Part shown: in pieces, positions 16,745 to 36,990 of the stretch
Layout: each line of letters starts with the position of its first letter
Position numbering within the stretch: position 1 is the first letter of the stretch
Source: an uncultured Ignavibacteriales bacterium
Lineage (GTDB): Bacteria; Zixibacteria; MSB-5A5; GN15; JAAZOE01
NCBI GenBank assembly: GCA_964526635.1
Contig: CAZGLR010000003.1
Coordinates: 8,186 to 72,185, forward strand
Direction of reading: 5' to 3'
DNA length: 64,000 nucleotides
The notes under the pieces: model-generated
What the model saw: the letters and a program-made list of their open reading frames with translations, nothing else
Told to the model about the DNA's origin: nothing
Databases searched by the model: none
Translations under genes and position numbers: made by a program

Positions 16745-16950
16745 ATATGACAAGGGGGAGAAGACACTGCCATATTGTAGGGGTTTCGATGATTCTGTGC
16801 CTTCGCCGCTATACAACTCGGCTCGCTCGCACATATAAAAGCATGTATTTATCACATCTGAATGACATGATCGTCCCCCCATAATTGTCATCAGGTGCGC
16901 ACAAACCCACTGACTTACTACCTTTTTCAGTTTTTCATAGGAGATACAGT

Positions 16951-18831: not shown

Positions 18832-18868
18832 CCGGAATCTGAAGTCCAAAAGTACTTTTTGATAGATT

Positions 18869-18903
18869 CACGAGCCCCTATATTGTGGGGGCTCGTGTTT
18901 TTT
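18869..18903 (+). terminator. Intrinsic terminator
   Basis: CACGAGCCCC / GGGGCTCGTG stem followed by TTTTTT. Confidence 0.8.
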
Positions 18904-18917
18904 ATGGGTGACTTATT

Positions 18918-19139
18918 ATGCCAAAAAGAGATATCGCAATTGTCCTCAGTGAACACACGCCGAAGTTACTGACCTTACCGGGTGTGGTCGGGACAGGCGT
19001 GGGATCATCAGATGGGACGCCATGCATTTCCGTGTTTGTGCATGAATTGACTGATGATATCCATGGTGCAATACCGACCGAGATCGAGGGGCACCCGGTG
19101 ATCATTACCGAAACCGGCCAGTTCCGCGCCGGATTATAA
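18918..19139 (+). CDS. Stand-alone homologue of the upstream protease prodomain (putative inhibitor)
   Basis: PGVVGTGVG...AIPTEIEGHPVIITETGQF aligns with PDVVGTGTG...AIPESIEGLPVKVKVTGKF of the 16951 protein. Confidence 0.75.
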   Translation: MPKRDIAIVLSEHTPKLLTLPGVVGTGVGSSDGTPCISVFVHELTDDIHGAIPTEIEGHPVIITETGQFRAGL

Positions 19140-19295
19140 CTGCCCATACCCGAATCAATCTGCACCGTACTCGCCATTTCGCTGAAAAAATTATCCATTT
19201 TCAGACAAAGGCTTATCCAAAATATATCGGGTCCCGCCTGTTCATCTGACGATATTAATTTATTCACGACTTTTTTGCAGTCGGCAATAAATATA

Positions 19296-19328
19296 GATAT
19301 TTTTTCATATTCGAACTGCACACCTAAT
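19296..19328 (+). promoter_or_regulatory. Putative ECF promoter, variant copy 5 (GATATTTT-N17-CACC-TAAT)
   Basis: One mismatch and a spacer one base longer than the other four; about 240 nt upstream of the ATG at 19566. Confidence 0.5.
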
Positions 19329-19565
19329 AATAACAAAGGGGGGAATGACACTTCCTTCAATGGAGTATTCGTGTACCAGTATGCCTGCCTATCGGAGTCT
19401 TTACAGTCTAATTTCAAGAACAATTTCTTACCAATATATCTTCCCCATACTACACAAATAAACTCGATGCAAGAGAGGAGGATTGACACTTTAATCGAAT
19501 TTTGCCTTGGAGTTGGCAACAAAATCCCTACTGCGTTATAGCCCTTCACCGTCATCGGAGGAACA

Positions 19566-22268
19566 ATGAAAAAATTTGGAATTCTTTTTTTACTTCTTTT
19601 TCTAACTCTGGTCGTAACGTCATCGGCCGCCGAAAAGTTTATGAAGGTAGATCGTGATTTCACTATACCATCATTCGTAGGTTATGTGCAAAACCAGCTC
19701 ATTGTGGTTTTGAATGACGATGTAAGTGTTGATCATGCCCGCGATGTCCGTTCGCAGCGGGCGCTGTCGAATTACTCCGGTTTTGATCCTCTGGCCCAGC
19801 GTTTTGCCGTGGCCGATTCCCGGCCCCAGTTCGCCGGTGCCGATCGCAAAGCCGGTGCTCAGCAGCTTGCCCGGCATTATAAAGTAACAATCGGAAAAGG
19901 AACGATCGAAGAGGCCAAAGCTGCCTATGAGCGCAATCCGCAGGTTAAACGGGTTGAACTTATTGGTTTGCATACAACCTATGCGACGCCGAATGATACG
20001 TACTACGACAACCCGCCGGCGGAGTTTCCCTATGATCAATGGCATTATTGGGCCAATCACAGTGTCGATGCCGATCTGGCCTGGGATCTCAACTCCGGTT
20101 CGGAAACCGTGCTGGTGGGTATTCTCGATTCCGGAACCCGGTATTTTCACATAGACCTTGGCGGCAACAGCACGCAATGGGGACCGGGCGCACCATTTGC
20201 CGGCGGAAATATTTTCATCAACCCGAATGAAACTCCGGGTGATGGCGTAGATAACGACGGTAACGGTTATGTCGATGATGTTATCGGTTATGACTTTATT
20301 GAGACAACCGGTGGCATTGGCGGCGTTTCCTGCATCGATCAGGACTGTGGTACCAAGGATAATGATCCGGATGACGGCAACGGTCATGGTACTCATACCG
20401 CCGGTACGGTTGGTGCAATTACCAACAATGCCCGTCAGGTTGCCGGCGTTGCCGGTGGTTTCAGCGATGGGACGACCAGCGGCGTCGGTAATGGTGTAAA
20501 AATCGTGCCTTGCCGCATGGGCTACCATGCATCATATCGCGGCATGGTAACCGGTATCGTCGACATGGCTGCCGCCGCCGAAGCGATGTACTATATGGCT
20601 GACCTGGTGGACGCCGGTCATAACGTTGCCGCGATCAACTGCTCGTGGGGCAGTTCCAACAGTGGCGGTCTTGGTGCCGCCGCCGATTATCTGATTTCAC
20701 GTGATGTGGTGATTGTCGTGGCGGCGGGTAACAGCAATTCGACAAGCGCCAGTTATCTCGGTACGCGGGGTGACTGCCTTGACGTCGCCGCCACGGATAA
20801 AAACGGCAATGGCGCCTCGTTTACCAACTACGGTTCATGGGTCGATGTCGCCGCTCCCGGCGTGGAGATTCTGAGTACGTATCGCAATCCCGATGATTCC
20901 GATCCCGCGGCGCATTACATCGCGCTGCTCGACGGTACCTCGATGTCGGCCCCGCATGTCGTCGGTATTGTTGCATTGTTGGAATCCTGCAACCCGGCTC
21001 TGACAGCTGCCGACAAATTCAATCTGGTCGTCGGAAACACGACGCCATATTCCGACAGCCGCGATCTTGGTTCCGGTATTGCCAATGCCTATTTGGCCCT
21101 GCAGGCAGCCAATTGCAGCAGCACGTGTACGGAAACCACCCCGGTGGCCGATTTCAGCGGATCGCCGACCAGTGGTGATGCGCCGTTGTTGGTTGCATTT
21201 ACTGACCTGTCTACGAATAATCCCTCGTCATGGTCATGGGACTTCGGTGATGGCGGCACCTCGACCGCCCAGAATCCGAGTTATACCTATGATGTCGCGG
21301 GAACGTACACGGTTTCGTTGACGGCATCCAATTGTGCCGGCTCCAATATCGTAACCAAGACCGGTTACATCACGGTAAGCGAACCACCGTGCACCGAAAC
21401 CATTCCGGTGGCCGATTTCAGCGGCAGTCCGACCAGCGGCGATGCGCCATTGACGGTTACCTTTACGGATCTGTCGACGAATAATCCGTCGTCATGGTCA
21501 TGGGACTTCGGCGACGGTGGCACATCGACGGCGCAGAATCCGAGCTATACGTATAGCGCTGCCGGAACCTATACGGTCGCGCTGACGGCCGGTAACTGTG
21601 CCGGTTCAAACACGGTAACCAAGACAGATTACATCACGGTAACGCAGTCGCAGCAACAGGAAATGCATGTTCAAAACATCACTCTCACCCGTCAGGCGGC
21701 CGGTGGGCCAAATCGGGTCGCCGTTGCCACGGTCACAGTATATGATCAGGCCGGACTGCCAGTTTCGGGAGCGACTGTTTACGGCGTCTTCAATGCACCT
21801 AATACCAGTACCAAAACCGGTGTCACCAACAGTTCGGGTATCGCAACTATTCAATCCGATAAAACCCGTACGCCACCGGCTGATTGGTGTTTTGAAGTCA
21901 CCGATATTACCGCCACCGGATACGTGTACAACAGCACCGCCAATCTGGTTATTTACGCCTGCGAAAGCGGCTGGGTATATAAGATCGGTAATCCGACGAT
22001 ACTGCCGACTGAAATGGCGCTGAGCAACCATCCGAATCCGTTTAATCCCACGACGACAATCGGCTTCGCGTTGACGCAGGACACTCATGCACGGCTCGAT
22101 ATTTTCAATATCGCCGGGCAAAAAGTAGCCACTCTGGTTGACGAATATCTCACCGCCGGTGAGTATTCGGTTGAATGGGACGGCAGACATGTCGCCAGTG
22201 GCATCTATTTGTATCGCCTGAGCACTCTTGAAAGCAGTCAGACCAAAAAGATGGTTCTGATGAAGTAA
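19566..22268 (+). CDS. Secreted S8 subtilase with two PKD domains and a FlgD-Ig/T9SS-like C-terminal sorting domain
   Basis: Signal peptide; ILDSG, HGTHTAG, GTSMSAP; two WSWDFGDG repeats (264-bp period, 21126 and 21390); C-terminus 'NHPNPFNPTTTI...IFNIAGQKV...ASGIYLYRL...KKMVLMK'. Confidence 0.93.
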   Translation: MKKFGILFLLLFLTLVVTSSAAEKFMKVDRDFTIPSFVGYVQNQLIVVLNDDVSVDHARDVRSQRALSNYSGFDPLAQRFAVADSRPQFAGADRKAGAQQLARHYKVTIGKGTIEEAKAAYERNPQVKRVELIGLHTTYATPNDTYYDNPPAEFPYDQWHYWANHSVDADLAWDLNSGSETVLVGILDSGTRYFHIDLGGNSTQWGPGAPFAGGNIFINPNETPGDGVDNDGNGYVDDVIGYDFIETTGGIGGVSCIDQDCGTKDNDPDDGNGHGTHTAGTVGAITNNARQVAGVAGGFSDGTTSGVGNGVKIVPCRMGYHASYRGMVTGIVDMAAAAEAMYYMADLVDAGHNVAAINCSWGSSNSGGLGAAADYLISRDVVIVVAAGNSNSTSASYLGTRGDCLDVAATDKNGNGASFTNYGSWVDVAAPGVEILSTYRNPDDSDPAAHYIALLDGTSMSAPHVVGIVALLESCNPALTAADKFNLVVGNTTPYSDSRDLGSGIANAYLALQAANCSSTCTETTPVADFSGSPTSGDAPLLVAFTDLSTNNPSSWSWDFGDGGTSTAQNPSYTYDVAGTYTVSLTASNCAGSNIVTKTGYITVSEPPCTETIPVADFSGSPTSGDAPLTVTFTDLSTNNPSSWSWDFGDGGTSTAQNPSYTYSAAGTYTVALTAGNCAGSNTVTKTDYITVTQSQQQEMHVQNITLTRQAAGGPNRVAVATVTVYDQAGLPVSGATVYGVFNAPNTSTKTGVTNSSGIATIQSDKTRTPPADWCFEVTDITATGYVYNSTANLVIYACESGWVYKIGNPTILPTEMALSNHPNPFNPTTTIGFALTQDTHARLDIFNIAGQKVATLVDEYLTAGEYSVEWDGRHVASGIYLYRLSTLESSQTKKMVLMK

Positions 22269-23889: not shown

Positions 23890-24153
23890 ATGGGCAAACC
23901 ATCAGAACGTTTCTGGCAGATATTAATTGAAGTTTTCGAAGCGCTGCCCCGGCAGGGTCCGGGTAATCGCGCCTGTACGCAGCGGGCGCTTGCACTCTGT
24001 CGTGACCTGCCGCCAGTACCGAAAATACTCGATCTCGGCAGTGGCATTGGCGCACAATCCTTGCATCTGGCGGAACTTACAGCCGGGATACGCCGGGGCG
24101 GCATATCCCGGGTACTGTGCTATGCGATCAACGAATCAGTCGGTTATGAATGA
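23890..24153 (+). pseudogene. Truncated class I SAM-dependent methyltransferase (N-terminal fragment)
   Basis: RBS GAAGGA; 'FEALPRQGPG...KILDLGSGIGAQSLHLAELT' (motif I), then non-homologous-looking sequence and a stop after about 87 aa. Confidence 0.7.
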
Positions 24154-24329
24154 TGCAATGACTTCTGTCCCTTGCCACCGCGATCATTTTCCTGATCCAT
24201 AAAGATATCAAAGACTTCGTCGCATTCTTCGCAGACAAATGTCTGGCGCCCCTTGCGGTTTTTACCCTCGGTCTGGATGTTGCGACTGCCGCAATTCGGG
24301 CAGCGTTTGGGTTGTTGTTTCTTCCCCAT
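24144..24329 (-). CDS. Small zinc-ribbon protein
   Basis: CPNC...CEEC; RBS GGAG; starts 1 nt after the MFS stop codon. Confidence 0.65.
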   Translation of the reverse strand: MGKKQQPKRCPNCGSRNIQTEGKNRKGRQTFVCEECDEVFDIFMDQENDRGGKGQKSLHHS

Positions 24330-24330
24330 G

Positions 24331-25782
24331 TTAATCTCCCGGGTTTTGTTTGGTGCGTCGCGTCAGTGACGGCAGGTCGGTGGTTTTGATGCCAAACGGT
24401 ACAATTAACCGGCCGGCCGAAAGTCGTTTCAGCGCGGTATCGCCGATGAAATTCAAGAGAATCGGCAGCGAGGTATCGCGCGGTTCATGACAGGCATTGA
24501 ACAGCGGTATGACCGCCATGCGCAGAAATGCCGAAATCGCGAACAATATCTGATAACGGCCCAGCGTCAGACCCGCCACAGTTATGCTTTGATCGCCCAT
24601 CACCTGAGCCAGGTAGCCGCCCAGAATAGAAGCGCCGAAATAGGCCAGGCCGGTGGTTACGGCGTAAATGGCCAGATAAATACATCGTTGCGACTTGTCG
24701 CTGCAACTTATTGGCAGGGTAAACACCGCCAGATTAAATCCGGCCCAGAGAATGCCCGAGTAAAGGGCCTCGCCATAGAGCACCCACGCCGTATTCGGTC
24801 CTGGAAAAAGCCATATCAGCGGAATAATTGAAATGCCGACAGCGGAGACGACTGCGGTTTGGCGGGCGCCGAAGCGGTCGATAGCCTTGCCCCAGCTATG
24901 AGTGGTCCATACCGCAGCCAGTGAAAACGCGCTGGTGTACAGACCAATCGCCAGGAAATTCATCCGCAGCTCGTTGAGCATATGCGGCGCGAAAAACGCC
25001 GCTGACAGACCGATAGCAACATGCCAGGCGGCGCCGGCTGTCAGCAGACGGCGAAATCGGCTGTGTCCAAACGGTGCCGCCACTGCGGTCAGAGTAATTT
25101 TTTGCTTTGATTGATTCGACCACGTGTCGGGAATGCGGGCCAGGTAGGCCAGCGCCATGGCTGCCGCCGTTGCGGCCATCGCGAGCAGTATCGCAAAACC
25201 CAGACTGCGATTTCCGGTCGCGCTGAAACCATCGAGTATTAAACTGGCAGCAATCGTGATGGTAACTGTGCTGATGGCGACCGCCATACTCCGGATACCG
25301 AAATAGCGGCCCCGCAGCCGCGATGGCACCAGGTCGGCAATCCATGCCGTCCATCCCGGTGCGGCAATCATCGCGCTGATTCCGGACAGTATCGCCAGGG
25401 TGGCCAGTATCTGTGGCCGGTACGGTATATCAAGGAAGCACAATGGAATCAAAAGCCACCAGCTCTGTCGGGCGATCGCCAGGAATGCAACGGTAATCGA
25501 CTTTCGGCGGCCGGTGACCGCGATCAGCATAGCTCCGGGCAGTTGTGCGATCTGGGCCAGAAACGGGATCGCGCCCAACAGTCCGAGCATGAAGTCATCG
25601 GCGCCCCAGTGAAGCGCCAGACCGGTTAAAAACGCACCACCGGTCAGGATAACGAACATATTGGCCAACGCGCCTTCCATCGTCATGGCGTAGAGCGACG
25701 CATAACGGGGCTTGCGAGTGGCGGCGGCGTTGAAGGGCAAGTGAAGTGAATGCCGTGCGGTTAATGACGTTGCCATCTCCAA
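24331..25782 (-). CDS. MFS transporter
   Basis: About 12 hydrophobic segments; 'WIADLVPSRLRGRYFG' and 'WGKAIDRFG' MFS loop motifs. Confidence 0.88.
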   Translation of the reverse strand: MEMATSLTARHSLHLPFNAAATRKPRYASLYAMTMEGALANMFVILTGGAFLTGLALHWGADDFMLGLLGAIPFLAQIAQLPGAMLIAVTGRRKSITVAFLAIARQSWWLLIPLCFLDIPYRPQILATLAILSGISAMIAAPGWTAWIADLVPSRLRGRYFGIRSMAVAISTVTITIAASLILDGFSATGNRSLGFAILLAMAATAAAMALAYLARIPDTWSNQSKQKITLTAVAAPFGHSRFRRLLTAGAAWHVAIGLSAAFFAPHMLNELRMNFLAIGLYTSAFSLAAVWTTHSWGKAIDRFGARQTAVVSAVGISIIPLIWLFPGPNTAWVLYGEALYSGILWAGFNLAVFTLPISCSDKSQRCIYLAIYAVTTGLAYFGASILGGYLAQVMGDQSITVAGLTLGRYQILFAISAFLRMAVIPLFNACHEPRDTSLPILLNFIGDTALKRLSAGRLIVPFGIKTTDLPSLTRRTKQNPGD

Positions 25783-27185
25783 ATCCCGGATCGTAGTCCT
25801 GTGCGATTTTCTGCTTCGATGGGTGTGACTATCGATGAAACCGGCTGCACTGATTTTGCATGCTCAGTCGTAGCCCTGTTATCAGCCAGCAGGACGGCAT
25901 CGGGCACCGCCTTAATGAAGCGCTGCCGGAGACTGTATGTATAAGCGCCCTGCGCTGGAATCACCAGAATATCGCCCGTCTGAATCGAGCTGCCCCAGTA
26001 ACCATAGCCCCAGATATCATGCGGCGTACACAGTGCGCCCATGACCATGCACGGCCGTTCTTCACAGTCCGGTCGAGAAATATTGACGACCGGGAAATAA
26101 TCGGATTCGAACCGTTCCCAACCGACCATATTGGTCCCGGCGTCGGTGATAACGAGATCATCGTCCTTTTTGTCGCACACGGTCATCGCCAGCATCATGG
26201 CATCGTGCGCCAGCCACCGTCCGGGTTCAAGGAAGATCTTCGGAGAAATAAATGGCGAAATGTATTGGGCGATTGCCCGGCTGATTCTATCGGCAAATTC
26301 GGTAATCGGCGCCGAGGGGATATAAAAACGGCCTCCGGCGCGATTGGTCGATTTGCCGGTCAGGACACTGATCAACCGCCCGCGCGGGGTGGCATCCGCC
26401 TGGAGCCATTCACCGCATTCCGGCCAGTAACCTCCCCCGATATCAATGAAACGAATCTCGGAACGCATGGCCGCCGGCAAAGACTGGATAATACTTCCGA
26501 GTTGAGCGATAGCACTGACCTGGGCCGATGGCGTCATATTCCAACTGGTATGAATATGCAATCCCCGGAAGGATATGTTTTTCAGGGATGGGATAGTCTC
26601 CAGAAGTCCGGTGACATCGTGCGCGGCTACGCCAAATTTCCGCCAGAGACCATGCTGGCGCACATTCATCCGCACGCCGATGCGAATTACCCTGCCCTGA
26701 TCGGCAGCCAGATAATTCAGCCGTTGCAACTCGGTCGAGCTGTCAACCAGGACGATAATCCGTTTGTGATGACGAATTGCCAGCCGCAGTTCGGCATCAG
26801 TTTTGCCCGGACCGGTAAAGATGATGCGATCGGCATCGGTCTGCAGCGCCAGCGACAGTTCCTCCCCGCTGGAAACATCGAGCCCGCCGCCAAGTTTGAC
26901 GATTTCTTCGGCAATGGCCGGATGATTGTTGCATTTCACAGCGAAGTAAATCTCCGCAGTCGGCAGAGGGCCTCGAAATGCCTTCGAAAAACGGGCAAAG
27001 CGCTGCCGCAACATCGGCAGATCGATCAGATACAGCGGACGGCCGGGCTGGACCAGGTGTTTTATGACCGCGGATGCGTTGTGAACGTATTCTATCGATG
27101 GCCTGATCTGCTGGTCACCAAGAACTCGCGGTCTATCAGTCAGGGCCCGGGTAACCGCCTTTATGATGCCAATGGTTCCGACCAT
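25761..27185 (-). CDS. Fold-type III PLP decarboxylase (diaminopimelate/ornithine decarboxylase family)
   Basis: YFAVKCN (PLP lysine), DVSSGEEL, FTGPGKT, IDIGGG, LEPGR, GALCTPHD, GAYT. Confidence 0.9.
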   Translation of the reverse strand: MVGTIGIIKAVTRALTDRPRVLGDQQIRPSIEYVHNASAVIKHLVQPGRPLYLIDLPMLRQRFARFSKAFRGPLPTAEIYFAVKCNNHPAIAEEIVKLGGGLDVSSGEELSLALQTDADRIIFTGPGKTDAELRLAIRHHKRIIVLVDSSTELQRLNYLAADQGRVIRIGVRMNVRQHGLWRKFGVAAHDVTGLLETIPSLKNISFRGLHIHTSWNMTPSAQVSAIAQLGSIIQSLPAAMRSEIRFIDIGGGYWPECGEWLQADATPRGRLISVLTGKSTNRAGGRFYIPSAPITEFADRISRAIAQYISPFISPKIFLEPGRWLAHDAMMLAMTVCDKKDDDLVITDAGTNMVGWERFESDYFPVVNISRPDCEERPCMVMGALCTPHDIWGYGYWGSSIQTGDILVIPAQGAYTYSLRQRFIKAVPDAVLLADNRATTEHAKSVQPVSSIVTPIEAENRTGLRSGIWRWQRH

Positions 27186-28471
27186 GGCCGGTCCTCCCTG
27201 ACGAGAATCAACTTCCGCTGCAACTCCTCACACTGACCGCGAATCGACAAGCCGGCATCGGGAGCGAAGATGACGTAGCCAAGGATGCGGGAATCATAAT
27301 CATCGGGCGGTTGCAATACTGTATGATTTGGTCCGATGGTTATGGTACAATTACGCACCCGGGGATCGCTTGAAATAAACCTCGTATCGCACTGGGTAAT
27401 GCGCCCGGAAAAACCGGTCAACAGCCGCAACCCCACCAGAGTCGTCCACTCCGGGAGATCAGGGATATGGAATTCTTCGCCGCGGGCCAGTGACACAGCG
27501 GCTTTCAGTATATCGAACTCCGCGGCATGCCGCAAAAGCGGCGGCAGGCAGTCACCGCCCGGACGCGGAGCCATCTCGAGCAGATACATACAATCACCCC
27601 GAACAATAAAATCGGCCATGACAATCGCCCTGGTAATGCCAAGCGATCGGGCGGCCGTATCCATAAATTCAGTCAACTGCCCGTCGGAAATTCCGGGTAT
27701 CGATGCCGGTACCTGATAAGCATGGATAGTCCCCGGAGGATGATTCGACGCCGGGATTTTCCGGGCGATACGTATCAGACGGCTTTCGTGCGGGGTAATC
27801 AGGATATCACAGCTGTATTCCTGGCCGAGAATGTATTCCTCAACCAGAAATCCGCCGGAATGGCTGTTGTCCTGTTGACGGAGACGGCGGCGGCGGCGTG
27901 ACGACGGCGGCCTTTTGATGCTACTGGTATACTGCAGGTGCAGCCAGGCGGCATGACGACACTCGGTTTCGGTCAGGCAATGGATAACCATCTCGCTGCC
28001 GGAACCGCAGAACGGTTTCAATACGACAGCCGAATCAAGCCGGCGCATTGCGTCGACAGCCTCATCTTCGGTGAAAGCCACTACCGATGCCGGGCTGGAG
28101 ATGCCGTTTGATCGCCATATGCTGCCGGATCGCCATTTGTTTCGGCAATTGGCGACTGTTTGTGGTGATTCAAACGGCAGCTTGAGATGCCTGGCCAGTT
28201 CAGCGGCCAGTGGCAGGGAATCATCATCAAAGCAGACCACGCCGACAATTTCGATTTCCCATTGCTGCGACCTCTGTTTGACCTGCGCCGGGATGTTACT
28301 GCTGTTGCCCAGATCGGAGACTATCTCCCGTTCGCCGGCGCGGACATCAAGCGGATTGCGGTCGCGCTCGGATTGATCGGTCAAAAACAGAAGTGAGTGT
28401 GGCAGCACGTCCATCAAATAGGTGATGTAGTCGGTGGTCGTTCCGACGACAAGAACGCGCCTGCTAGCCAT
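27161..28471 (-). CDS. ATP-grasp ligase (L-amino acid ligase-like)
   Basis: CRNKW, VVLKP..GSGS, LVEEYILGQEYS, YLLEMAPRPGGD. Confidence 0.88.
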   Translation of the reverse strand: MASRRVLVVGTTTDYITYLMDVLPHSLLFLTDQSERDRNPLDVRAGEREIVSDLGNSSNIPAQVKQRSQQWEIEIVGVVCFDDDSLPLAAELARHLKLPFESPQTVANCRNKWRSGSIWRSNGISSPASVVAFTEDEAVDAMRRLDSAVVLKPFCGSGSEMVIHCLTETECRHAAWLHLQYTSSIKRPPSSRRRRRLRQQDNSHSGGFLVEEYILGQEYSCDILITPHESRLIRIARKIPASNHPPGTIHAYQVPASIPGISDGQLTEFMDTAARSLGITRAIVMADFIVRGDCMYLLEMAPRPGGDCLPPLLRHAAEFDILKAAVSLARGEEFHIPDLPEWTTLVGLRLLTGFSGRITQCDTRFISSDPRVRNCTITIGPNHTVLQPPDDYDSRILGYVIFAPDAGLSIRGQCEELQRKLILVREDRPWSEPLAS

Positions 28472-29450
28472 GAGTAACTCCGGCAGCGAGTCTGCCTGCT
28501 GCAACCGATCGCACCTTCATAATCTGCGCCGGAACCGCCGCGATGTCTTTGAGCGCATAGAGAGGCCGCGGGGTCAGATGAAACCGTGACTTCCACGAAA
28601 AATCCCCGCAGAGAAAATCAACGGCATCGTAGCGCTCATCGCAGGCACGCTGCATGTGAAAAAGGTTGATCAATTTGGCCACACCCGGAAAATCCTTATT
28701 GGTGCCGCCCGCCAGCAGAGTATAGACACCGTTGTAGACAGCACCCATATCGACCGCTGCGGGCTGACCGCCAAGATACAAAGTAACTATCTTAAGCCAG
28801 CCATGCTCGGCCAGCAAGGTCATCAGGCTGCGGAAACTCTCGGTGAATCGGGGATCGCCAAAGTATGAATACAGGCCATAGCGATCCTTGTTCAATGAAA
28901 CCATCAAATCGAAATCACGGCAATCATCGAAACGATACTCGACCCCGAGTGCTTCAAGGCTCGCGACTTCACGATGAATTTGCTTCCGCGATTTACCGGA
29001 AAAAACCGCCCAGTAGTTTTCCATGGCATGCCCATAGTGACCCGGAGTGAACAGGTAACCGATTTCATCGACCGCCGAATCCAGGCCGTGCATTTCCGGC
29101 GAGGACGACATATAGCGGAGATGATACGACACACCCGCCGTCTTGAGCTGTTCGAACAGATCAGCCAGGGCATCGGCACTGGTTGCATACAGACGGTTCT
29201 GTTCCAACCAGGTTTTGCCATCCCAGACTTCCCCCGGATAGTAACCATAGATGCCCTGTTCTTCGATCCAGCTCAAGGGGAGGAAAGCGCGAAGAACGCC
29301 TCCCGTCTCGCTGGTGATAAAGTACGGCATCCGTTTATACTGTCTCTGGAAACACACACGGACATCCCAGCGATCAACCAGGTGCTGGTCCGGGATGTAC
29401 GTCTGCCAGAGGTGTCGGCAGTCAACCGGGTCGGTGTAGACGCGCAACAT
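28464..29450 (-). CDS. GNAT-fold acyltransferase (FemAB/CelD-like)
   Basis: 'FSGKSRKQIHRE', 'PGVAKLINLFHMQRAC...VDFLCGDFSWKSRF'. Confidence 0.82.
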   Translation of the reverse strand: MLRVYTDPVDCRHLWQTYIPDQHLVDRWDVRVCFQRQYKRMPYFITSETGGVLRAFLPLSWIEEQGIYGYYPGEVWDGKTWLEQNRLYATSADALADLFEQLKTAGVSYHLRYMSSSPEMHGLDSAVDEIGYLFTPGHYGHAMENYWAVFSGKSRKQIHREVASLEALGVEYRFDDCRDFDLMVSLNKDRYGLYSYFGDPRFTESFRSLMTLLAEHGWLKIVTLYLGGQPAAVDMGAVYNGVYTLLAGGTNKDFPGVAKLINLFHMQRACDERYDAVDFLCGDFSWKSRFHLTPRPLYALKDIAAVPAQIMKVRSVAAGRLAAGVTHG

Positions 29451-29452
29451 CG

Positions 29453-29842
29453 CTAATACCGGAGGTTCGTATTGACAAGGCAACGCGAACCCTTGAAATA
29501 CGTACGGGCAAACTCCTCGACCGCGTCCGGATCATATGGCTTGCAACTGAACACGTCGAGATAGGTCGTATTGGTCAGGTTGGCAAAATGCGCCGAGATC
29601 AGCGATGTTTCGATAAGCTGGACCATCGAGTACCCGGCGACTTTTTCATCTTCACCGAAATGCACCACCTGGCATTCGCCAAAGCGTTTCATTTCGATCA
29701 GGTCGCAGAGCTCGACGACAAACTGTTTGATTTTTTCGGCATCCCGAATAATAACCGGGTCGCAATCGTAAATGTCGAAACTGCAGGCAATACCCCAGAC
29801 GTGCTGGCGAGTGGCCCGCTCGACAATGGTTTCGGTCTTCAT
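29453..29842 (-). CDS. speD: S-adenosylmethionine decarboxylase proenzyme family (pyruvoyl-dependent)
   Basis: 129 aa; 'DIYDCD', 'VVHFGED..GYSMVQLIETSLISAH', 'YLDVFSCK'. Confidence 0.88.
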   Translation of the reverse strand: MKTETIVERATRQHVWGIACSFDIYDCDPVIIRDAEKIKQFVVELCDLIEMKRFGECQVVHFGEDEKVAGYSMVQLIETSLISAHFANLTNTTYLDVFSCKPYDPDAVEEFARTYFKGSRCLVNTNLRY

Positions 29843-29947
29843 AGCAGCCTCTCCATCGTAATGAGAGGTTATCCGGCAGACCCCTGCCGGCGGCCGTGTC
29901 GGAGGTTCAGCATCATCCCTGCCTCCGCCGGTGACAACAGTGTTACA

Positions 29948-30616
29948 TTACCACCGCACCGAAGTATCGTCGTCATGGGGAATGGCTTCCCGGATGAAAC
30001 GGGTCAATCCCCCCACCAATGCCGAGCGCACCGGGTGCAAAATTTTATCTAATTCATCCTCTTCTGCGGCGATGACAGCAAACGAAAAATACCCCGACAC
30101 GAATCCCGCCACCGCACATGAAATCCTCGTTAAAGTTTTTTCGCTTAATTTATGTTTAACGATACCGTCTATCAAAGCCGCTATATGATCAAGGTAATCG
30201 GTAAATGGCTCATTGATATCCTCATACCCCTCGGCCAGCGTCAGATCCGCCTTCCCCTGGAAATAGAGAACAAAATCTTCCCAGCGGGTTCGGAAAAAGT
30301 CAATATGGGCCACAATCAGGCCGTCGAGCATCTCCGGCAATTCGGTAATATTGGCGCAGCGCTGCTCAATAGCCAGGGTCAACTCGGCCAGTGTTTGCTC
30401 CATGAGCAGCCGGACGAGGCCGTTTTTGTTCTTAAAATGATAATAAAAAGTCCCCTTGGCGACATCAGCGTGTTCAGTGATTTCGTCAATGGTCGTTAAA
30501 TCCATGCCCTTTTGGGCAAAAAGCTCCCGGGCGGCATCGACCATCGCCTTTTTGGTGGCGATAGTTTTGAGTTCGCCACGGCTTTTTTCTGGGTTGTCGT
30601 TCAGTTCTGCTATCAC
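29948..30616 (-). CDS. TetR/AcrR family regulator
   Basis: AARELFAQKG...TTIDEITEHADVAKGTFYYHFKNK. Confidence 0.93.
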   Translation of the reverse strand: MIAELNDNPEKSRGELKTIATKKAMVDAARELFAQKGMDLTTIDEITEHADVAKGTFYYHFKNKNGLVRLLMEQTLAELTLAIEQRCANITELPEMLDGLIVAHIDFFRTRWEDFVLYFQGKADLTLAEGYEDINEPFTDYLDHIAALIDGIVKHKLSEKTLTRISCAVAGFVSGYFSFAVIAAEEDELDKILHPVRSALVGGLTRFIREAIPHDDDTSVRW

Positions 30617-30658
30617 TCAAGAGACTCTCTTTCAAGTACTTCCGCGCTTGCCGCAAAC

Positions 30659-30708
30659 TGACTATATGGTCATTACTGACTATTTAGTCATTTTTGACTA
30701 TATCGTCA
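30659..30708. promoter_or_regulatory. Triple tandem palindromic operator (TGACTATWTVGTCA x3, 18-bp period)
   Basis: TGACTATATGGTCA 30659-72, TGACTATTTAGTCA 30677-90 and TGACTATATCGTCA 30695-708, directly upstream of tetR. Confidence 0.8.
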
Positions 30709-31174
30709 TAATTGAACGCAAAATCAAGTAAAAAGTTTCAGTGAAACAAATTTTTTTTAATTTTTTGTCTATCTTGAAATTGCCTTTTTATTAGACTCAG
30801 ATCCTGGCGTCTACACCAAAGATTGCTATTGACAATAAGTTATGCCTTTCACGGCCCGTTTGCGACAAAATCCCCGGATCCTGTCTTTACACACCCCGGG
30901 ACAGATCGCAGTTTCCCCCCACGGTACAAATCTCATTATCGAGATAATCGTTGGCCGGCTTGAACTTAGGAGTCTAACGCTTTTGAACAGGTTACTTGCA
31001 AGTTGTCTTACCGTGAGCCCGAACAATGCCGGTCATTTTATTTAGGAGCTTGCGGTTGAGGTAATATGCAGCGATATTAGAGAGGGGCTCCTCTAATGGC
31101 TGACCTGCTGTATAAAAACGCTTTCCCGCACAAATTCATCATGACTTTTGGGCCTGACTTATTATGTTAGGCTC

Positions 31175-32035
31175 ATGCACTGCCTGTTTGTCAGCGACCT
31201 CCACGGCAGCGAACGGCGCTACCGGAAATTATGGTCCCTCATCGCCGAAACCGCACCCGCTATGCTCTTTATGGGCGGTGACCTGTTGCCGTCGGGCCCG
31301 ATGATGTACCAGAATCTCCGGGCCGGTCTGTTCGACTTTGTAGAAGATATTCTCATCGCGGGATTTGATGATCTTCGGACGCAGATGGGCGAATCATATC
31401 CGGATATCCTGCTTATTCTCGGAAACGATGACGAACGGTATCAAGAAGAGGCGGTAATCGATGGCGAAAAGCGGGGTTTGTGGCATTATGCCCATAATCG
31501 CATGATACCTCTGCATGGTTATGATTTCTATGGTTATGCCTGTGTGCCGCCGTCGCCGTTTCGCCTGAAGGATTGGGAACGCTACGATGTCTCCCGTTTC
31601 GTTGATCCCGGTGCAATCTCGCCGGAAGAGGGGATGTATACCATTGAGATAAGTGATCATGAAAAAAAATATATGACCATGCAGCACGACCTGACGGCAT
31701 TGATCCGCGATAATAATGTCTCAAGAGCGGTATTTCTTTTCCATTCACCGCCCTATCAAACCAAACTCGATCGGGCGGCGCTTGATGGCAAGATGATCGA
31801 TTATGCCCCGCTTGATGTCCATGTCGGTTCAATTGCGATCAAGCGGATGATAGAAAACAGCCAGCCGTATTTGACCCTGCATGGTCATATCCATGAATCG
31901 GCCTTGATCACCGGTTCATGGCGTGATTGTATTGGGGTAACGCAGTGCTTTTCGGCAGCGCATCACGGACCGGAACTGGCCGTGGTCAGTTTCGATCTCG
32001 ATCAGCTTAAGAATGCCGAACGGCATCTGCTATGA
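31175..32035 (+). CDS. Calcineurin-like metallophosphoesterase
   Basis: SDLHG, GGDL, LGNDD, FHSPP, HGHIHE. Confidence 0.9.
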   Translation: MHCLFVSDLHGSERRYRKLWSLIAETAPAMLFMGGDLLPSGPMMYQNLRAGLFDFVEDILIAGFDDLRTQMGESYPDILLILGNDDERYQEEAVIDGEKRGLWHYAHNRMIPLHGYDFYGYACVPPSPFRLKDWERYDVSRFVDPGAISPEEGMYTIEISDHEKKYMTMQHDLTALIRDNNVSRAVFLFHSPPYQTKLDRAALDGKMIDYAPLDVHVGSIAIKRMIENSQPYLTLHGHIHESALITGSWRDCIGVTQCFSAAHHGPELAVVSFDLDQLKNAERHLL

Positions 32036-35000
32036 GTCTGATCCGAGTATCAGTTCGCGGGCCGGATCGGTTACCGCACCGATCTTGACGGCATAGCTGG
32101 TTTTCTTCTCAATGTCCTCGTCGGTAATAATGTGCACATCGAGCAGTTCATCGAGCCGGTAGCCGGTTCGCTGATAGTTAATCTCAGCCAGGCACTGGCT
32201 CCATCCCTTCAGCCAGAGATCGAGTTCGCAGCGCTGCTTTTCGTCGCCACGGAAATGGATCAGCAGATCGATATCGGACCCCGGACCGGCCAGCGCATTC
32301 TTGGTGCTGCCGAACAAATACATTTTATGTATGCCGTACTGTTTCGGCTTCACTTCAGCGGCCAGTCGCTGAACCATGGCATAGCGCCATCGCCAGAAAT
32401 CATCGGATTCGACCGGCAGTTCGGCCTGTTTCGGCGTATGCCATGACAAACCTGTGCCGGGCTCATCGAGCACGGCGAGGGCTTCATCGAGTTCGGCGTT
32501 CATGAGAAGATTGAGGATATTGCCACCGGTGTACTCCGGAATATCGATCAGCTTGACGACATCGGCATACCGCTCGGCTTCGGGCAGAAGCTTGGGCATA
32601 ATGTTGGGGGCAAGGCGGAAGAAGGCTTCATTGAAGATAGTCTTGTCCTCATCGGGATACAATGGAATATAGCGGATGCCCGACTCGACCAGGTCCTGGA
32701 AGAAATGTGTTCCGAAAGATAAATCGGGCACATAATTGCCCTTGGTCCGGGCGACTTCAATAAGGGCTGCACAATTATTGATATCGGAATACGTGACGCT
32801 GACACCGAGCTTGATATCGCCGCGACTGCCCCAGCGACCGGGACCGATAAGAATAAATTGCCGTTTGGGCAACAGTTCATTCAGACGGCTGACGATGCGA
32901 CCGACAGCCAGCAGGTCTTTCCGTTCCGACAGGTTGGTATAGTTTTCCGGATCGACATACACAATATGCGAGAGGTTGCCCAGGTAGCCATTGGAAATGT
33001 ACTTATTGGCCGAGAACAGAATCTTATGCGGGGCGACGTCCTTGGGGATCGGTGCCGGCTGAATCTCAGGCGAATAACTCTGGGTACGGCACTGCAACAA
33101 GTAGAAGTGTTTGCCATCATGGGCGAATTCAATATCCACCGGGTGATTATGCGCATCCTCGAGAATTCTCAAGATGGCGTTGGTTTGCTGCACAAACTGT
33201 GTGTCCTGAATCAGGCTGTCGAAGGTAACGATAGCGTCTTCAGGACTAAGATCGAGATTCAAGCCGGTTTGCTTTTGAATATGATTGTCCTTGTAAACTG
33301 ATATAATGCGATTGAGTCCCGGAATTGAGGTGCCCACTTCTTTGAGAAAATCAGTGAAATTAATAGTCTCGAAAGCGTTGGTTTCCATGTTAATGACATC
33401 GATCATATGCGGCGAATAGCGAGCGATTTCTTCCGGTTCAATATTTACTCGAAGATGCGGCTGGCCTGGTGAAATCAGCACCGGGTAATCGTCGCTCAAA
33501 CGGTCGACTGCGCGCGTTCCCAGTCCCGGGACCAGCCGCAGGAGACCATCTTCGCGTTTAATGCGCGGCGACCAGCGGTACTCATTGCGACTGAACGCCA
33601 CCCCGGCAAAGGCTGGTAGAAAATACTTGCCGATACGCTGGCCGACAACCTCCTGAATAATTATGCCCATTTCTTCCCCGAAATCGAGCAGGCCGCGTTC
33701 GGCCCGATATTCGATTGGATCAGGGCTGAAGGTTGATGCATAAACTTCGGCAACAGCATCGGTCAATGCTTTGAGTCGTTTGCGCTTGGAACCCTGGTTG
33801 GCCAGAAAGAGGCTCTTGTACTTGCCAGAAAACGCCGCCCCGGTGCGATCTTCCAGAAGTGATGATGACCGGACAATCAATGGCGTATCGCCGAAATCAT
33901 CAAGAGCCATCGACAATCCCTGCGCGATATCCGGTGGAAATGGTGCCTTCTTAAAGGTTTCGACGATATAGGGATATTCCAGCCGGACTTGATGAATATC
34001 TTTGTATTTCTGCTCGACGACTTCCTCGAAATTATTGAAGCGCATGAAATGCAGCAGGACATCGGAGGTGATATGCCATGATTTGGGGATACGGACATTT
34101 TTTAATATGTCCATGTCCTTCTTCTTATTTTTAATCACTTGCGAAGCCAGATACAGGCCGGCGCTTTTGCCGCCGATTCGGCCATGACTTTCGGCGCTGA
34201 AAACTACCCGTCTAAAGAGATGGTAAAAATCACGAATCTCAATCTGGTTTTTAATGATGTTGATATAGCCGAGCTGATCCGAGAGAATCCGCCGTATCAG
34301 GGAAACGAGAATACCTTTTTCATTGGGCGAAGAACCGCCCATTTCAGTGAGATGATAATATCTACGGATAGCATCGGTCACATCAGCCAGGTTTAAATTA
34401 CGGTTTACCACCTGAACAAGAAATGACAGTTTATCTTCCTGAATCCATTTTTTGACCAGAGCCAGGATTTCCGCATGATCCAGAGCCTCGGCGGCCTTCT
34501 GGAAAATGACAGAGCCCAGTCCCCGTGGCGCTTTGGCATGATTGTTCTTGAGTGGCTGATTCCAGGTATCAGGTTGATCGCTGGCCGGATGAGCATCATG
34601 CGATGAATAAGACAGAAGCAATTCTTCAGCGCCGGGGACACCCTGCCAGCAGAGGTAGTTCAGCATTTTGCGCGTAATTGCGGCATACAGCTTGGCATCG
34701 GTTTGCTTAAGCATACGGATAACGATCTGCCACTCATGGCTCTCGTCGTCGCCATTGGTGCGTTTGGTTTCCCAGTCCTGGATAATACCACGCATTTTCT
34801 GGTGGGCGACAAATTGTCCAAGCCGTTCGGCAATAGTACGAATCAGCCGGGCTTCTTCCTTCAAAAACGGGCCATCATCGGCGACCGGCACATCCTCGAG
34901 ATAATACACCGAGACTTTCCCGATCGTGATCTTATTGGCGATAATATCGGTCTGCTGACACCATTTGGTTTCAATGAGATCATCATGACGATATACCGAG

Positions 35001-35197
35001 TCCTCGATCTCGATCTTGGCCCGGCAGATGTCGGGATATTGCCACCCCGGCGGAATCGCCTCGATAATCTCGGGATATATTTCGTCGACCGGTCGGTTGA
35101 AATCGCTGAGGATTTCTTCGACGCGATATATGCAGTTGAGCTCTTTGGCCCGCTCCTGCAATGACAGCAGCAGGATGTCCATGGGGTCTTTACTCAT
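32030..35197 (-). CDS. PEP/pyruvate-binding (PPDK_N, ATP-grasp) domain protein with C-terminal Pol-beta-type nucleotidyltransferase
   Basis: IGGKSAGL, VRSSSLLED..AFSGKY, VPGLG, DIEFA...LLQCR; C-terminal 'YLFGSTKN..AGPGSDIDLLIH'. Confidence 0.88.
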   Translation of the reverse strand: MSKDPMDILLLSLQERAKELNCIYRVEEILSDFNRPVDEIYPEIIEAIPPGWQYPDICRAKIEIEDSVYRHDDLIETKWCQQTDIIANKITIGKVSVYYLEDVPVADDGPFLKEEARLIRTIAERLGQFVAHQKMRGIIQDWETKRTNGDDESHEWQIVIRMLKQTDAKLYAAITRKMLNYLCWQGVPGAEELLLSYSSHDAHPASDQPDTWNQPLKNNHAKAPRGLGSVIFQKAAEALDHAEILALVKKWIQEDKLSFLVQVVNRNLNLADVTDAIRRYYHLTEMGGSSPNEKGILVSLIRRILSDQLGYINIIKNQIEIRDFYHLFRRVVFSAESHGRIGGKSAGLYLASQVIKNKKKDMDILKNVRIPKSWHITSDVLLHFMRFNNFEEVVEQKYKDIHQVRLEYPYIVETFKKAPFPPDIAQGLSMALDDFGDTPLIVRSSSLLEDRTGAAFSGKYKSLFLANQGSKRKRLKALTDAVAEVYASTFSPDPIEYRAERGLLDFGEEMGIIIQEVVGQRIGKYFLPAFAGVAFSRNEYRWSPRIKREDGLLRLVPGLGTRAVDRLSDDYPVLISPGQPHLRVNIEPEEIARYSPHMIDVINMETNAFETINFTDFLKEVGTSIPGLNRIISVYKDNHIQKQTGLNLDLSPEDAIVTFDSLIQDTQFVQQTNAILRILEDAHNHPVDIEFAHDGKHFYLLQCRTQSYSPEIQPAPIPKDVAPHKILFSANKYISNGYLGNLSHIVYVDPENYTNLSERKDLLAVGRIVSRLNELLPKRQFILIGPGRWGSRGDIKLGVSVTYSDINNCAALIEVARTKGNYVPDLSFGTHFFQDLVESGIRYIPLYPDEDKTIFNEAFFRLAPNIMPKLLPEAERYADVVKLIDIPEYTGGNILNLLMNAELDEALAVLDEPGTGLSWHTPKQAELPVESDDFWRWRYAMVQRLAAEVKPKQYGIHKMYLFGSTKNALAGPGSDIDLLIHFRGDEKQRCELDLWLKGWSQCLAEINYQRTGYRLDELLDVHIITDEDIEKKTSYAVKIGAVTDPARELILGSDS

Positions 35198-36935
35198 GAA
35201 GAATTACTCCCCGACTGATGCGACCATCGACTTTGATGGTAAGCGGATTTTCAACACGGACATGATGCACAAATTGACTGGACTGAACAACCGGTTGCGC
35301 GCGAAGCCAGTCCCAGTCGATTTTCTCGCGATTGAAATTCACCTGGAAATACGGTATCCGAAAACTGGTCATGTTGTGGAAGAAATGTGTTCCCTGACTG
35401 AGCTCGACATTCATATTCGGCAAAGTCGCCTCAATAATTGCCCGGGCACCGGAAATCTGGCTCCATTCCACCGGAATACCAAGCCAGGGTTCCGATGATC
35501 CCCAACGACCGAAACCGATCAGCAGATACGGTCGGTTCTCTTCGACCAGTGTTCTATTCAGTGTCGATATTTCAGCGGCAATCGCAGGCGTGTTGGCCGC
35601 CGCGAACGAATCAGGGTCGACAAAGACAATGTCCGTGATATTATCAACTACGCCGTTTCCAAGTGCGCGGGTGGAAGTCGCCAGGGTCCGGCCGGAGGTG
35701 ATATCCTCGTCGGTAATATCGGTTTGTTCCCGGCTGACCACCATCGGCCGCACCTGAAGCAGCGCAAATGAAAACTTCCCCGATGACGAAATCGTCGCGG
35801 CAAATTCGATTTCAACGTCGAGATGATACTGCGTTTCACAATGAATGAGCAGCGAACTGAGCAGCTCGGTAAGCTGGAAACGGTGATCCTTGAGTATCGG
35901 AGCAAAATTTATAATACGCGGACCGGGCCGTCCGACGCCCGAAACCACGCGGTCATTTTCGGGCAGAAAGGTTGATGCGATGTAATCAAGCGCGCCATCG
36001 TATTCAGCCTCACGCAGATCATACTGAACCAGGTATTCGGCTTCATTAAAAGGATCGTATTCAGGAGACGGTCCCATGTTGACAGCCCACCCCCGGGTTT
36101 GCGTCAGATCGAGCTGATCGCGGATCGATCCGAACGGCGGTGTGACCGATGGAAACGCCGGCGAAAAACTCCAGGAGATACCGCCGTCAACAATCGTCTT
36201 GCCCAAACCGGAGGCCAGATTGACAATACCGTGCTCCGGCTTGGCGCTGCCCATCGGGTAAAAATTATAGGATCTGGCCACGCCGGAGATGTCGGGATAG
36301 AAACGGTCGATATGACGCCGTCCGACAACCTCCTGAATAATAACCGCCATTTTCTCAACACGGGTATCCTTGCCGACCGCCCGATGATAATTACGGGCAT
36401 TCCCAAACCAGGTCGAGGCATAGACGAATTTTATCGCCTCGACCAGTTTACGGAAACGGGTATCGACATCCGGTTGATTATTGGGGATCATCTTGGTGCT
36501 GTACACGCCGGCAAACGGTTCAAAGAGATCATCTTCAAGCAGCGACGACGACCGGATCGCCAGCGGGGTGGTGATTTCTGATATCAGGGCACGGATATCA
36601 CCGACGATTTCAACCGGCAGATCGGCGCTCATGAAACGACCAATAATTTCTTTATCCGACGCCTCGGGATCATTCAGGAGATCATCAAGTTGATTGCGTT
36701 CGATGAATTGTTCGAAAATATCGGTGGCGATAACGACCATCTTGGGAATAGACAGATCTATGGCATCATACGTGCCGCCCGGATACTTGGCGTGCAGGAT
36801 ATCATGTATCGTAACCAGCCCGGTGGCCTTGCCGCCAATGCCGCCCTCCCCGATTTTGCTGATTATACTGCGTGAGCGGTAGAAGTCCCGGGTAAACCGT
36901 TCCACAGCATGATGTGTATTTTTTATTTCCGGCAT
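35190..36935 (-). CDS. PEP/pyruvate-binding (PPDK_N) domain protein
   Basis: IGGKATGL, IRSSSLLED..PFAGVY, SGLG, EIEFA...LLQVRP, GFGRWGS, LSQGTHFF. Start MPEIK follows RBS GAAGGA. Confidence 0.88.
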   Translation of the reverse strand: MPEIKNTHHAVERFTRDFYRSRSIISKIGEGGIGGKATGLVTIHDILHAKYPGGTYDAIDLSIPKMVVIATDIFEQFIERNQLDDLLNDPEASDKEIIGRFMSADLPVEIVGDIRALISEITTPLAIRSSSLLEDDLFEPFAGVYSTKMIPNNQPDVDTRFRKLVEAIKFVYASTWFGNARNYHRAVGKDTRVEKMAVIIQEVVGRRHIDRFYPDISGVARSYNFYPMGSAKPEHGIVNLASGLGKTIVDGGISWSFSPAFPSVTPPFGSIRDQLDLTQTRGWAVNMGPSPEYDPFNEAEYLVQYDLREAEYDGALDYIASTFLPENDRVVSGVGRPGPRIINFAPILKDHRFQLTELLSSLLIHCETQYHLDVEIEFAATISSSGKFSFALLQVRPMVVSREQTDITDEDITSGRTLATSTRALGNGVVDNITDIVFVDPDSFAAANTPAIAAEISTLNRTLVEENRPYLLIGFGRWGSSEPWLGIPVEWSQISGARAIIEATLPNMNVELSQGTHFFHNMTSFRIPYFQVNFNREKIDWDWLRAQPVVQSSQFVHHVRVENPLTIKVDGRISRGVILHE

Positions 36936-36990
36936 TTCTGTATTCCTTCCTTCAGATATCCCCGGAAACGGGGATATCTGAATATGCAAT

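Follow-up and report, generated by a model that had tools for sequence, protein, structure and literature searches.

What is made by an operon that places, behind a TetR-type repressor, a SpeD-like protein, a tandem-GNAT transferase, an ATP-grasp ligase and a fold-III decarboxylase dependent on pyridoxal 5'-phosphate (PLP)? The question is raised by a 64,000-nt stretch of contig CAZGLR010000003.1 from an uncultured Ignavibacteriales bacterium (the window, in whose positions all coordinates are given), where seven open reading frames (ORFs), all on the - strand, make up such an operon. Our analyses make it somewhat probable that its product is a small, amine-rich amide of putrescine, assembled without a nonribosomal peptide synthetase (NRPS). 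The locus is laid out as follows.

29948..30616, - strand: TetR-family repressor, 222 aa (PF00440, TetR_N, above cut-off)
29453..29842, - strand: SpeDC, homologue of pyruvoyl-dependent L-ornithine decarboxylase, 129 aa (AdoMet_dc above cut-off)
28464..29450, - strand: tandem-GNAT (FemX/Sba18-like) transferase, 328 aa (Acetyltransf_6 above cut-off)
27161..28471, - strand: ATP-grasp ligase of L-amino-acid-ligase type, 436 aa (ATP-grasp_4 above cut-off)
25761..27185, - strand: alanine-racemase-fold (fold-III) PLP decarboxylase, 474 aa (Orn_Arg_deC_N above cut-off)
24331..25776, - strand: major facilitator superfamily (MFS) transporter, 481 aa (MFS_1 above cut-off)
24144..24329, - strand: CxxC-CxxC zinc ribbon, 61 aa (two NCBIfam zinc-binding domain models above cut-off)
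30659..30708, no strand: predicted TetR operator array of three TGAC-N6-GTCA palindromes (pattern and conservation)
24083..24111, - strand: 13-bp GC-rich hairpin after the last gene (RNA fold)

The original prediction of six overlapping or abutting genes on one strand behind tetR is confirmed by the ORF coordinates: 105 nt separate tetR from speDC and 2 nt separate speDC from the GNAT gene, which overlaps the ligase gene by 8 nt; the ligase and decarboxylase genes overlap by 25 nt and the decarboxylase and MFS genes by 16, and a single nucleotide lies before the ribbon. The start of the GNAT in the window is also that of a database protein (P0122). The end coordinate that had been given for the operon, 30708, turns out to be the end of the operator array, which had gone unmentioned.

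Does this order recur elsewhere? A first scan of the genome collection gave one locus, and the survey reported here covers 121: 27 from the phylum of the window genome, 14 from a second phylum (that of a Desulfobacteraceae genome) and 80 from metagenomes, the best of 477 matches, gene-order counts being restricted to loci long enough for each test. An ATP-grasp gene stands directly upstream of the decarboxylase gene in 112/112 loci and the GNAT gene upstream of this pair in 94/94, while speDC is found upstream in 75/84 and is missing in nine. Because the order of GNAT, ligase and decarboxylase recurs in every testable locus, it is not a product of chance; the conserved core is smaller than six genes. 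The co-conservation implied by the original prediction therefore holds for the GNAT, the ATP-grasp enzyme and the PLP decarboxylase, and usually for SpeDC, but not for all six genes, the MFS transporter and the zinc ribbon each following in 13/95 loci (tblastn). The Fem-like GNAT, the ligase and the decarboxylase form the invariant core, and SpeDC, the only dispensable enzyme of the cassette, is its usual supplier. Like this gene order and its co-conservation, the families, folds, active-site residues, operator conservation and gene fusions described below are matters of observation.

The decarboxylase defines a distinct clade: its matches in 60 relatives fall into two sets, one at 402-471 bits and the other at no more than 84. 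It is present in 48/285 genomes of the window phylum and in 14/301 genomes sampled from the second one, and the source names of its homologues include Desulfobulbaceae, Zixibacteria, Planctomycetes, Armatimonadota, Verrucomicrobia and Omnitrophica. A regular-expression search of the ORFs of the 121 loci found neither an acyl carrier protein nor a Mur-ligase motif; the IucA/IucC family of NRPS-independent siderophore (NIS) synthetases is not represented among the seven genes, nor does the core have any other recurrent gene. Plasmids yielded only distant fold-III enzymes, none of the 15 matches listed exceeding 27% identity. As for loci without speDC, the only whole genome of this kind that was checked (G549) lacks the gene elsewhere too and has a separate PLP-dependent ornithine decarboxylase (ODC) with a C-D loop, and in locus L114 speDC lies a few kb upstream on the opposite strand.

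The SpeD-like protein had been taken for a possible maker of aminopropyl donors, and this we can correct. Within the SpeD homologues there is a clade whose members act as L-ornithine decarboxylases and can be told by Gln, Thr, Phe and Tyr residues (PMC10407285). In an ungapped comparison made by eye with Fig. S5 of that article, 81 of 114 positions (71%) of the window protein are identical to the ODC domain validated for Desulfotignum phosphitoxidans. All four diagnostics are present (Gln75, Thr79, Phe86, Tyr94; types from the text of the article, positions assigned through its Fig. S5), with 95% or more of 62 sequences sharing each. The residues for self-cleavage and catalysis, namely the predicted pyruvoyl Ser80, His85 and Cys100, are conserved as well. 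An ordinary S-adenosylmethionine decarboxylase was considered and rejected: TIGR03330 gives 27 bits where 75.65 would be needed, the protein fails the test for an E-S-H...W-P motif and a SpeE partner, the Pro of S-adenosylmethionine decarboxylases is absent, and the true SpeD is encoded with speE on contig C10. SpeDC is thus likely, on its sequence, to convert L-ornithine to putrescine and not to make aminopropyl groups, and this putative putrescine supply is the strongest of the functional assignments proposed here. If so, neither an aminopropyl donor nor a spermidine synthase is needed; the latter, as had been predicted, is missing from operon and window, the single PF01564 match of the genome being on contig C10. 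That contig holds a separate speD-ODC-speE operon, and because the genome already owns it, SpeDC would be a supply of putrescine dedicated to the cassette.

The PLP decarboxylase keeps an intact catalytic set, with K84, R172, H212, E320, R323 and C386 invariant, and its model (mean predicted local distance difference test, pLDDT, 87.8) has the standard alanine-racemase fold. Its other features are a C386-T-P-H-D loop, a W356-E-R-F-E360 segment and a 35-residue insertion at about 255-290. C386, T387, P388 and D390 occur in 120/120 homologues, the loop reading C-T-P-H-D in nearly all; W356, also in 120/120, aligns to the LysA Arg that binds the distal carboxylate (PMC7857480). The residue after the catalytic Cys is Thr here, Glu in LysA (C-E) and Asp in ODC (C-D), including the ODC of the same genome; an acidic residue at this place binds the side-chain amine of the substrate and is lost in FigC (PMC7857480). 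C-T-P is common to our decarboxylase, BtrK and SbnH, His389 matches His357 of FigC, and a conserved Arg420 lies nearby. In a PDB profile search built on the 120 homologues FigC came first (E 3.4e-39), followed by Aquifex LysA, BtrK and SbnH, and no CANSDC chain passed the PDB searches. Identity with LysA was rejected on TIGR01048 (158 bits against 297.9) and on the replacement, by T387 and W356, of the acidic residue after the Cys and of the Arg in the specificity helix; the loop without Asp after the catalytic Cys speaks against ODC, lysine decarboxylase and CANSDC, in which an Asp there or in the specificity helix holds a free distal amine, and NF041039 (74.9 bits against 500) against FslC. 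With its complete PLP set and no acidic residue after the Cys, the enzyme resembles the FigC/SbnH/BtrK-type decarboxylases of acylated amino acids, and the suspicion that neither decarboxylase of the operon is an ordinary LysA or SpeD was well founded.

Since the residues by which LysA and ODC bind amine and carboxylate are replaced, the likely substrate would be an alpha-amino acid whose distal end sits in an amide. Five fusions of ligase and decarboxylase among the 150 representatives listed (P0245, P0246, P0247, P0249 and P0276, one of them with two ATP-grasp domains) argue that the product of the former is the substrate of the latter. A library-wide profile search returned 477 representative proteins at E ≤1e-30, routinely annotated as LysA; sister clades belong to candidate-phyla bacteria, and a single distant member bears the name Woesearchaeota (P0318). 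In each of the five cassette-bearing genomes checked, another fold-III gene (~424 aa) is present, and the two that were read for motifs are C-E LysA.

The ligase has the three-domain architecture of L-amino-acid ligases (background in PMC9486568): PF13535 is above cut-off, PF18130 is weak, Atlas neighbours carry LAL_C2, and K112, K152, GSGS 156-159, E211, E218, D287, E299 and R303 are conserved. The window protein has an Arg-rich segment at residues ~175-205, where conservation is poor, and Asp84 in place of the Glu of the family; it is otherwise intact. The GNAT model (pLDDT 88.9) shows a tandem GNAT fold, closest to FemX (Z 17.2, root-mean-square deviation 4.9, 279 aligned residues) and to the aminoacyl-tRNA-dependent Sba18 and Sbb17 (Z 17.0, 4.0-4.2, ~262 aligned), with ~10-12% identity to this FemX/Sba18-type set; MprF-type domains reach Z ~14 and acetyl-CoA enzymes at most 13.5 (MshD 13.3). 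Sequence and profile searches of the PDB with it gave no matches at E ≤1. Its family is invariant in D278-F-x-C281-G and W286-K287-x-x-F290 and has a basic helix at 150-160, and a catalytic Lys with an aromatic residue and a basic tRNA-binding helix are described for FemX and DhpH-C (PMC12945691). By motif, the W286-K287 pair and the helix are candidate counterparts of FemX K305 and of its tRNA-binding helix. From the modelled fold, the GNAT is likely to add an amino acid taken from aminoacyl-tRNA.

From these data we infer substrates, step order and product as follows. SpeDC would turn L-ornithine into putrescine, the ATP-grasp ligase would join an amino-acid carboxylate to an amine as an amide, the PLP enzyme would then decarboxylate the amide-linked product, and the FemX-like enzyme would place one more amino acid, probably from aminoacyl-tRNA, on a free amine. 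The amide-forming pathway without NRPS that the original prediction had proposed is supported by this analysis. In the version that we prefer, an acidic amino acid, Glu or else Asp, would be joined to putrescine through its side-chain carboxyl, and loss of CO2 would leave 4-aminobutyryl- (or beta-alanyl-) putrescine by a carrier-free chemistry like that of BtrJ and BtrK; this exact route is put forward tentatively and is unlikely to be right in all its details. That the product serves as a stress or osmotic solute is a guess. Several points weigh against the scheme. The FigC/BtrK clade is described as unrelated to polyamine biosynthesis (PMC7857480), the structure of our decarboxylase is about equally near to LysA, SbnH, FigC and D-ornithine decarboxylase (TM 0.6-0.68), and a single-sequence search puts it near Aquifex LysA. 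The closest solved relative of the ligase, 3VOT (E 6e-7), is an L-amino-acid ligase that forms alpha-peptides; an alpha-linked amide leaves no alpha-carboxyl, so that side-chain ligation or an acylated ornithine must be assumed. FemX, which ties with Sba18 as top fold match of the GNAT, acts on peptidoglycan precursors, and a partial CoA-binding motif, R-x-x-G-x-A, is found in 52/120 GNAT homologues (it is absent in the window protein), so an acyl-CoA donor is also possible. Finally, the loci were picked through the decarboxylase and not dereplicated, and related ones are not independent.

How is the operon controlled? The three palindromes start at 30659, 30677 and 30695, with a period of 18 bp, and lie 43-92 bp upstream of tetR. 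Because the pattern was itself read from the window, the independent test lies in the other loci. There the palindrome is found within 350 bp upstream of tetR in 32/49 tetR loci, with at least two sites in 15, at a density of 2.74 per kb as against 0.023 per kb elsewhere; it is present at 8/8 further tetR loci and upstream of only 2/28 loci without tetR. It is therefore likely that TetR represses the promoter from these three predicted operators, its binding being, like them, deduced from sequence patterns. Among 70 loci with 4.5 kb of upstream sequence, 42 have tetR, 26 a sigma-54 activator, two neither and none both; the activator replaces TetR in about a third of loci. A regular expression for sigma-54 promoters, probably too strict, matched 3/26 activator loci and 0/42 tetR loci.

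The TetR clade is present in all 48 genomes of the window phylum that have the decarboxylase and in six others: one where the cassette is cut by a contig end, one with tetR-MFS at a contig end, and four with a different operon behind the operator (L166, L167, L169 and L170, that is G194, G196, G190 and G195). This operon encodes a threonine-synthase-like PLP enzyme, a DUF1611 (DgcN-like) protein, an L-Ala-D/L-Glu epimerase-like protein, a 793-aa protein in which a weak MurL match is fused to a creatininase domain, and in 3/4 an MFS transporter; the names come from NCBIfam and are mostly below cut-off. In the window genome the only other pair of exact sites spaced by 18 bp is on contig C12 (G000:C12:34074-38174; L145:3075-7175), where it overlaps a promoter-like TTGACA-17-GATACT site and precedes a tetR paralogue (45% identical), a second zinc ribbon (acidic tail, terminal Glu), RLAN, a RimK-like ligase and GNAT/DUF3335. 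The RLAN-RimK-DUF3335 module is appended to the cassette in 9/95 loci, the long operon being whole in L027 and L058, and it occurs in 33/48 genomes with the decarboxylase versus 28/237 without (kin not independent). Regulation shared with the cassette is not a general property of this module, 20/20 other stand-alone copies lacking tetR and ribbon, for which reason the C12 module may be a deletion remnant, the other half of a longer operon. One TetR clade and its operator would thus head three predicted amino-acid-amide modules; two of them carry glutamate-related annotations, and this is why Glu is favoured above as the probable substrate of the ligase.

The last two genes are of another kind. 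The MFS transporter follows in 11/27 loci of the window phylum and 0/14 of the second one; its close homologues are found in 24/48 genomes with the decarboxylase and in 28 genomes without, and in 16/16 further loci they adjoin none of the cassette genes. It is an optional passenger of the operon, a dedicated exporter role is unproven, and the proposal that the product is exported finds no support in this distribution. The ribbon follows in 19/27 loci of the window phylum, mostly in its TetR-led operons, is mostly absent outside that phylum, has a variable charged tail and reaches only sub-cut-off Pfam families. As it tracks TetR-led operons, we would guess at a regulatory accessory.

Could these enzymes serve another end? 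The most serious competitor, which we judge unlikely, is an inducible remodelling of peptidoglycan or muropeptides, in which the PLP enzyme would turn the meso-diaminopimelate (DAP) of the stem peptide into Lys, the Fem-like enzyme would aminoacylate the new epsilon-amine, and the ATP-grasp enzyme would amidate the stem D-Glu with putrescine made by SpeDC. FemX as top fold match of the GNAT speaks for it, as does the replacement of both LysA residues that bind the amine and carboxylate of the L-centre of DAP, two groups that are blocked in the stem peptide; and the window genome has dapF, no dapB match and a MurE-like protein whose DNPR motif we take to mean DAP. Putrescine on the D-Glu of peptidoglycan is known in Veillonella and Selenomonas (PMC12826042). 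The TetR clade, moreover, heads the epimerase-like gene and the protein with the weak MurL match in four genomes. Yet the search of the 121 loci for a Mur-ligase motif came back empty, the small-molecule enzymes Sba18 and Sbb17 tie with FemX, the decarboxylase subfamily extends to a distant member from a Woesearchaeota archaeon, and a dispensable, patchy operon (48/285 genomes) with an optional MFS transporter fits a soluble product; we also know of no precedent for the decarboxylation of peptide-bound DAP. The same idea at its widest, a repressor-controlled rewriting of the wall of Gram-negative anaerobes from DAP to Lys, with a Fem side branch and putrescine-capped D-Glu, as one of three interchangeable modules whose TetR clade senses a glutamate-containing peptide, seems to us more doubtful still.

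A further competitor follows the order of FigC-type pathways: the distal amine of ornithine or lysine would first be acylated, by the Fem enzyme or the ligase, and the PLP enzyme would then make an acyl-putrescine, with free putrescine from SpeDC serving as another nucleophile or as no more than an additional source. The rank of FigC in the profile search, its matching His at the third position after the Cys with Arg420 nearby, the absence of SpeDC from 9/84 loci and the established acylation by FemX of distal amines of diamino acids are in its favour; however, SpeDC would compete for ornithine, FigC evolved where putrescine was lacking (PMC7857480), and it is the ligase, not the Fem enzyme, to which the decarboxylase is fused, and we hold this order to be improbable. 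The ribbon invites another thought, namely that it is a LysW-like carrier or itself the modified protein, or else that a host acyl carrier protein (ACP) is used as with BtrI. Carriers of the LysW/AmCP kind are zinc ribbons with a conserved C-terminal acidic motif ending in Glu, and this identity was rejected for the ribbon of the cassette: tails are unconserved, that of the window ends His-His-Ser, and 2/23 ribbons found end in Glu. The frequency of the CxxC-CxxC ribbon in the window phylum, the C12 paralogue with its acidic, Glu-ended tail before a RimK/LysX-family ligase, and ligase and decarboxylase types that recall BtrJ and BtrK fit a carrier or a tagged protein, against which stand the absence of the ribbon from most loci outside the window phylum, the ACP motif missing from the 121 loci and 0/20 stand-alone RimK modules with a ribbon; we consider it very improbable. 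That SpeD and LysA are merely housekeeping neighbours, with no shared product, is hardly credible. It agrees with the automatic annotation as diaminopimelate decarboxylase and with the window genome having no LysA-like gene beyond the operon enzyme, but not with the TIGR01048 score and the missing LysA pocket residues, the further fold-III gene in all five cassette genomes checked, the absent dapB match or the invariant gene order. The putrescine amide remains our preferred reading.

As to the setting, the window genome (G000) is 100% complete and has a single copy of each operon enzyme; G+C is 55.6% in the enzyme block and 51.9% in the genome. The hairpin at 24083..24111 has no U-tract and is possibly the end of the transcript, and a promoter and terminator scan of the window did no better than shuffles. 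On the + strand, 23890-24153 encodes a short fragment like the N-terminus of a DVU_1556-type methyltransferase (E 2.5e-5), whose similarity ends near the hairpin and which abuts the ribbon stop, possibly marking the junction of operon insertion. By reading of the sequence, 16885-22268 (+) encodes two large secreted-looking proteins with PKD-like repeats, one trypsin-like and one subtilisin-like protease, and 32030-37040 (-) two genes of 1055 and 616 aa resembling phosphoenolpyruvate/pyruvate-binding domains, the first with a nucleotidyltransferase-like tail; a metallophosphoesterase gene lies opposite at 31148-32035. Elsewhere, genome G001 has two cassette copies on different contigs (L030, L058). 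A fasciclin-domain gene is found inside or just after TetR-led operons in 10/121 loci, and also behind a tetR paralogue in G002 (loci L024, L028, L029, L033, L034, L036, L038, L054, L058, L076 and L172). A stand-alone C39-like peptidase gene lies directly 3' of the decarboxylase in L068, L119, L124, L130, L132, L133 and L134, speDC being missing in all three with enough upstream sequence and a SET-like gene, by reading, following in two. After the decarboxylase, a split membrane domain and a spermidine-synthase-like gene (NF037959) occur in L077, L078, L109, L121 and L125 and in part in L090, and L024, L051, L076, L096 and L098 share, beside the cassette, a P-loop protein of ~390 aa for which neither Pfam nor NCBIfam gave a match.

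The cassette is widespread and uncharacterised and, as its four enzymes are small and soluble, lends itself to direct testing. The open-access literature yielded no article on it, subscription literature lying outside the search; the study of amidoligase operons by Iyer et al. 2009 may cover some of these neighbourhoods. If the proposed pathway is correct, anaerobes of many uncultured lineages would make a polyamine-like amide without S-adenosylmethionine, NRPS or carrier protein, by a route that unites an ATP-grasp ligation step and tRNA-dependent aminoacylation. A decarboxylase subfamily annotated LysA, as yet unstudied, and a clade of Acetyltransf_6 would each receive a first substrate, and SpeDC a use outside polyamine clusters. 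The operator would offer a ready reporter for finding the inducer, which should bear as well on two other orphan modules, RLAN-RimK-DUF3335 and DUF1611-epimerase.

Among known systems, BtrJ and BtrK of butirosin biosynthesis likewise pair an ATP-grasp ligase, which is the fold of BtrJ, with a decarboxylase having the C-T-P loop, BtrK turning a linked Glu into a 4-aminobutyrate unit; our operon has no ACP, hydroxylase or aminoglycoside genes, and its ligase is likened to BtrJ by type. FigA/FigC of rhizoferrin and SbnE/SbnH of staphyloferrin B follow the same logic of ligation before decarboxylation (PMC7857480), with an alanine-racemase-fold decarboxylase free of an acidic residue after the catalytic Cys, an amide-ligase partner and an optional MFS transporter, but they use NIS synthetases where the window operon has ATP-grasp and Fem enzymes; identity to FigC and SbnH is ~22%, and the window adds the 35-residue insertion, the W-E-R-F-E specificity segment and a built-in putrescine supply. 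The SpeDC enzymes of Li et al. 2023 share the 71% identity, the four diagnostics and the Ser/His/Cys processing residues; there speDC accompanies speD/speE, casdh/casdc or hss (PMC10407285), whereas its neighbours here are a Fem transferase, a ligase and another decarboxylase. FemX, Sba18, Sbb17, Orf11 and DhpH-C (PMC12945691) have the same tandem GNAT fold and, by motif, probably counterparts of the invariant aromatic-Lys pair and basic helix, at 10-12% identity and in contrast to the invariant Cys281 and the partial CoA motif of our GNAT family. The clusters for E-64 are likewise independent of NRPS and use a dedicated, dispensable decarboxylase as diamine supply, an ATP-grasp ligase and a second amide-forming enzyme (PMC12568646); the window operon differs in having no epoxysuccinate oxygenase, a second amide enzyme that is Fem-like and not adenylating, and an extra decarboxylase. 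Each of its enzymes is thus of known fold, and the cluster as a whole resembles the NRPS-independent amide pathways yet is a member of none.

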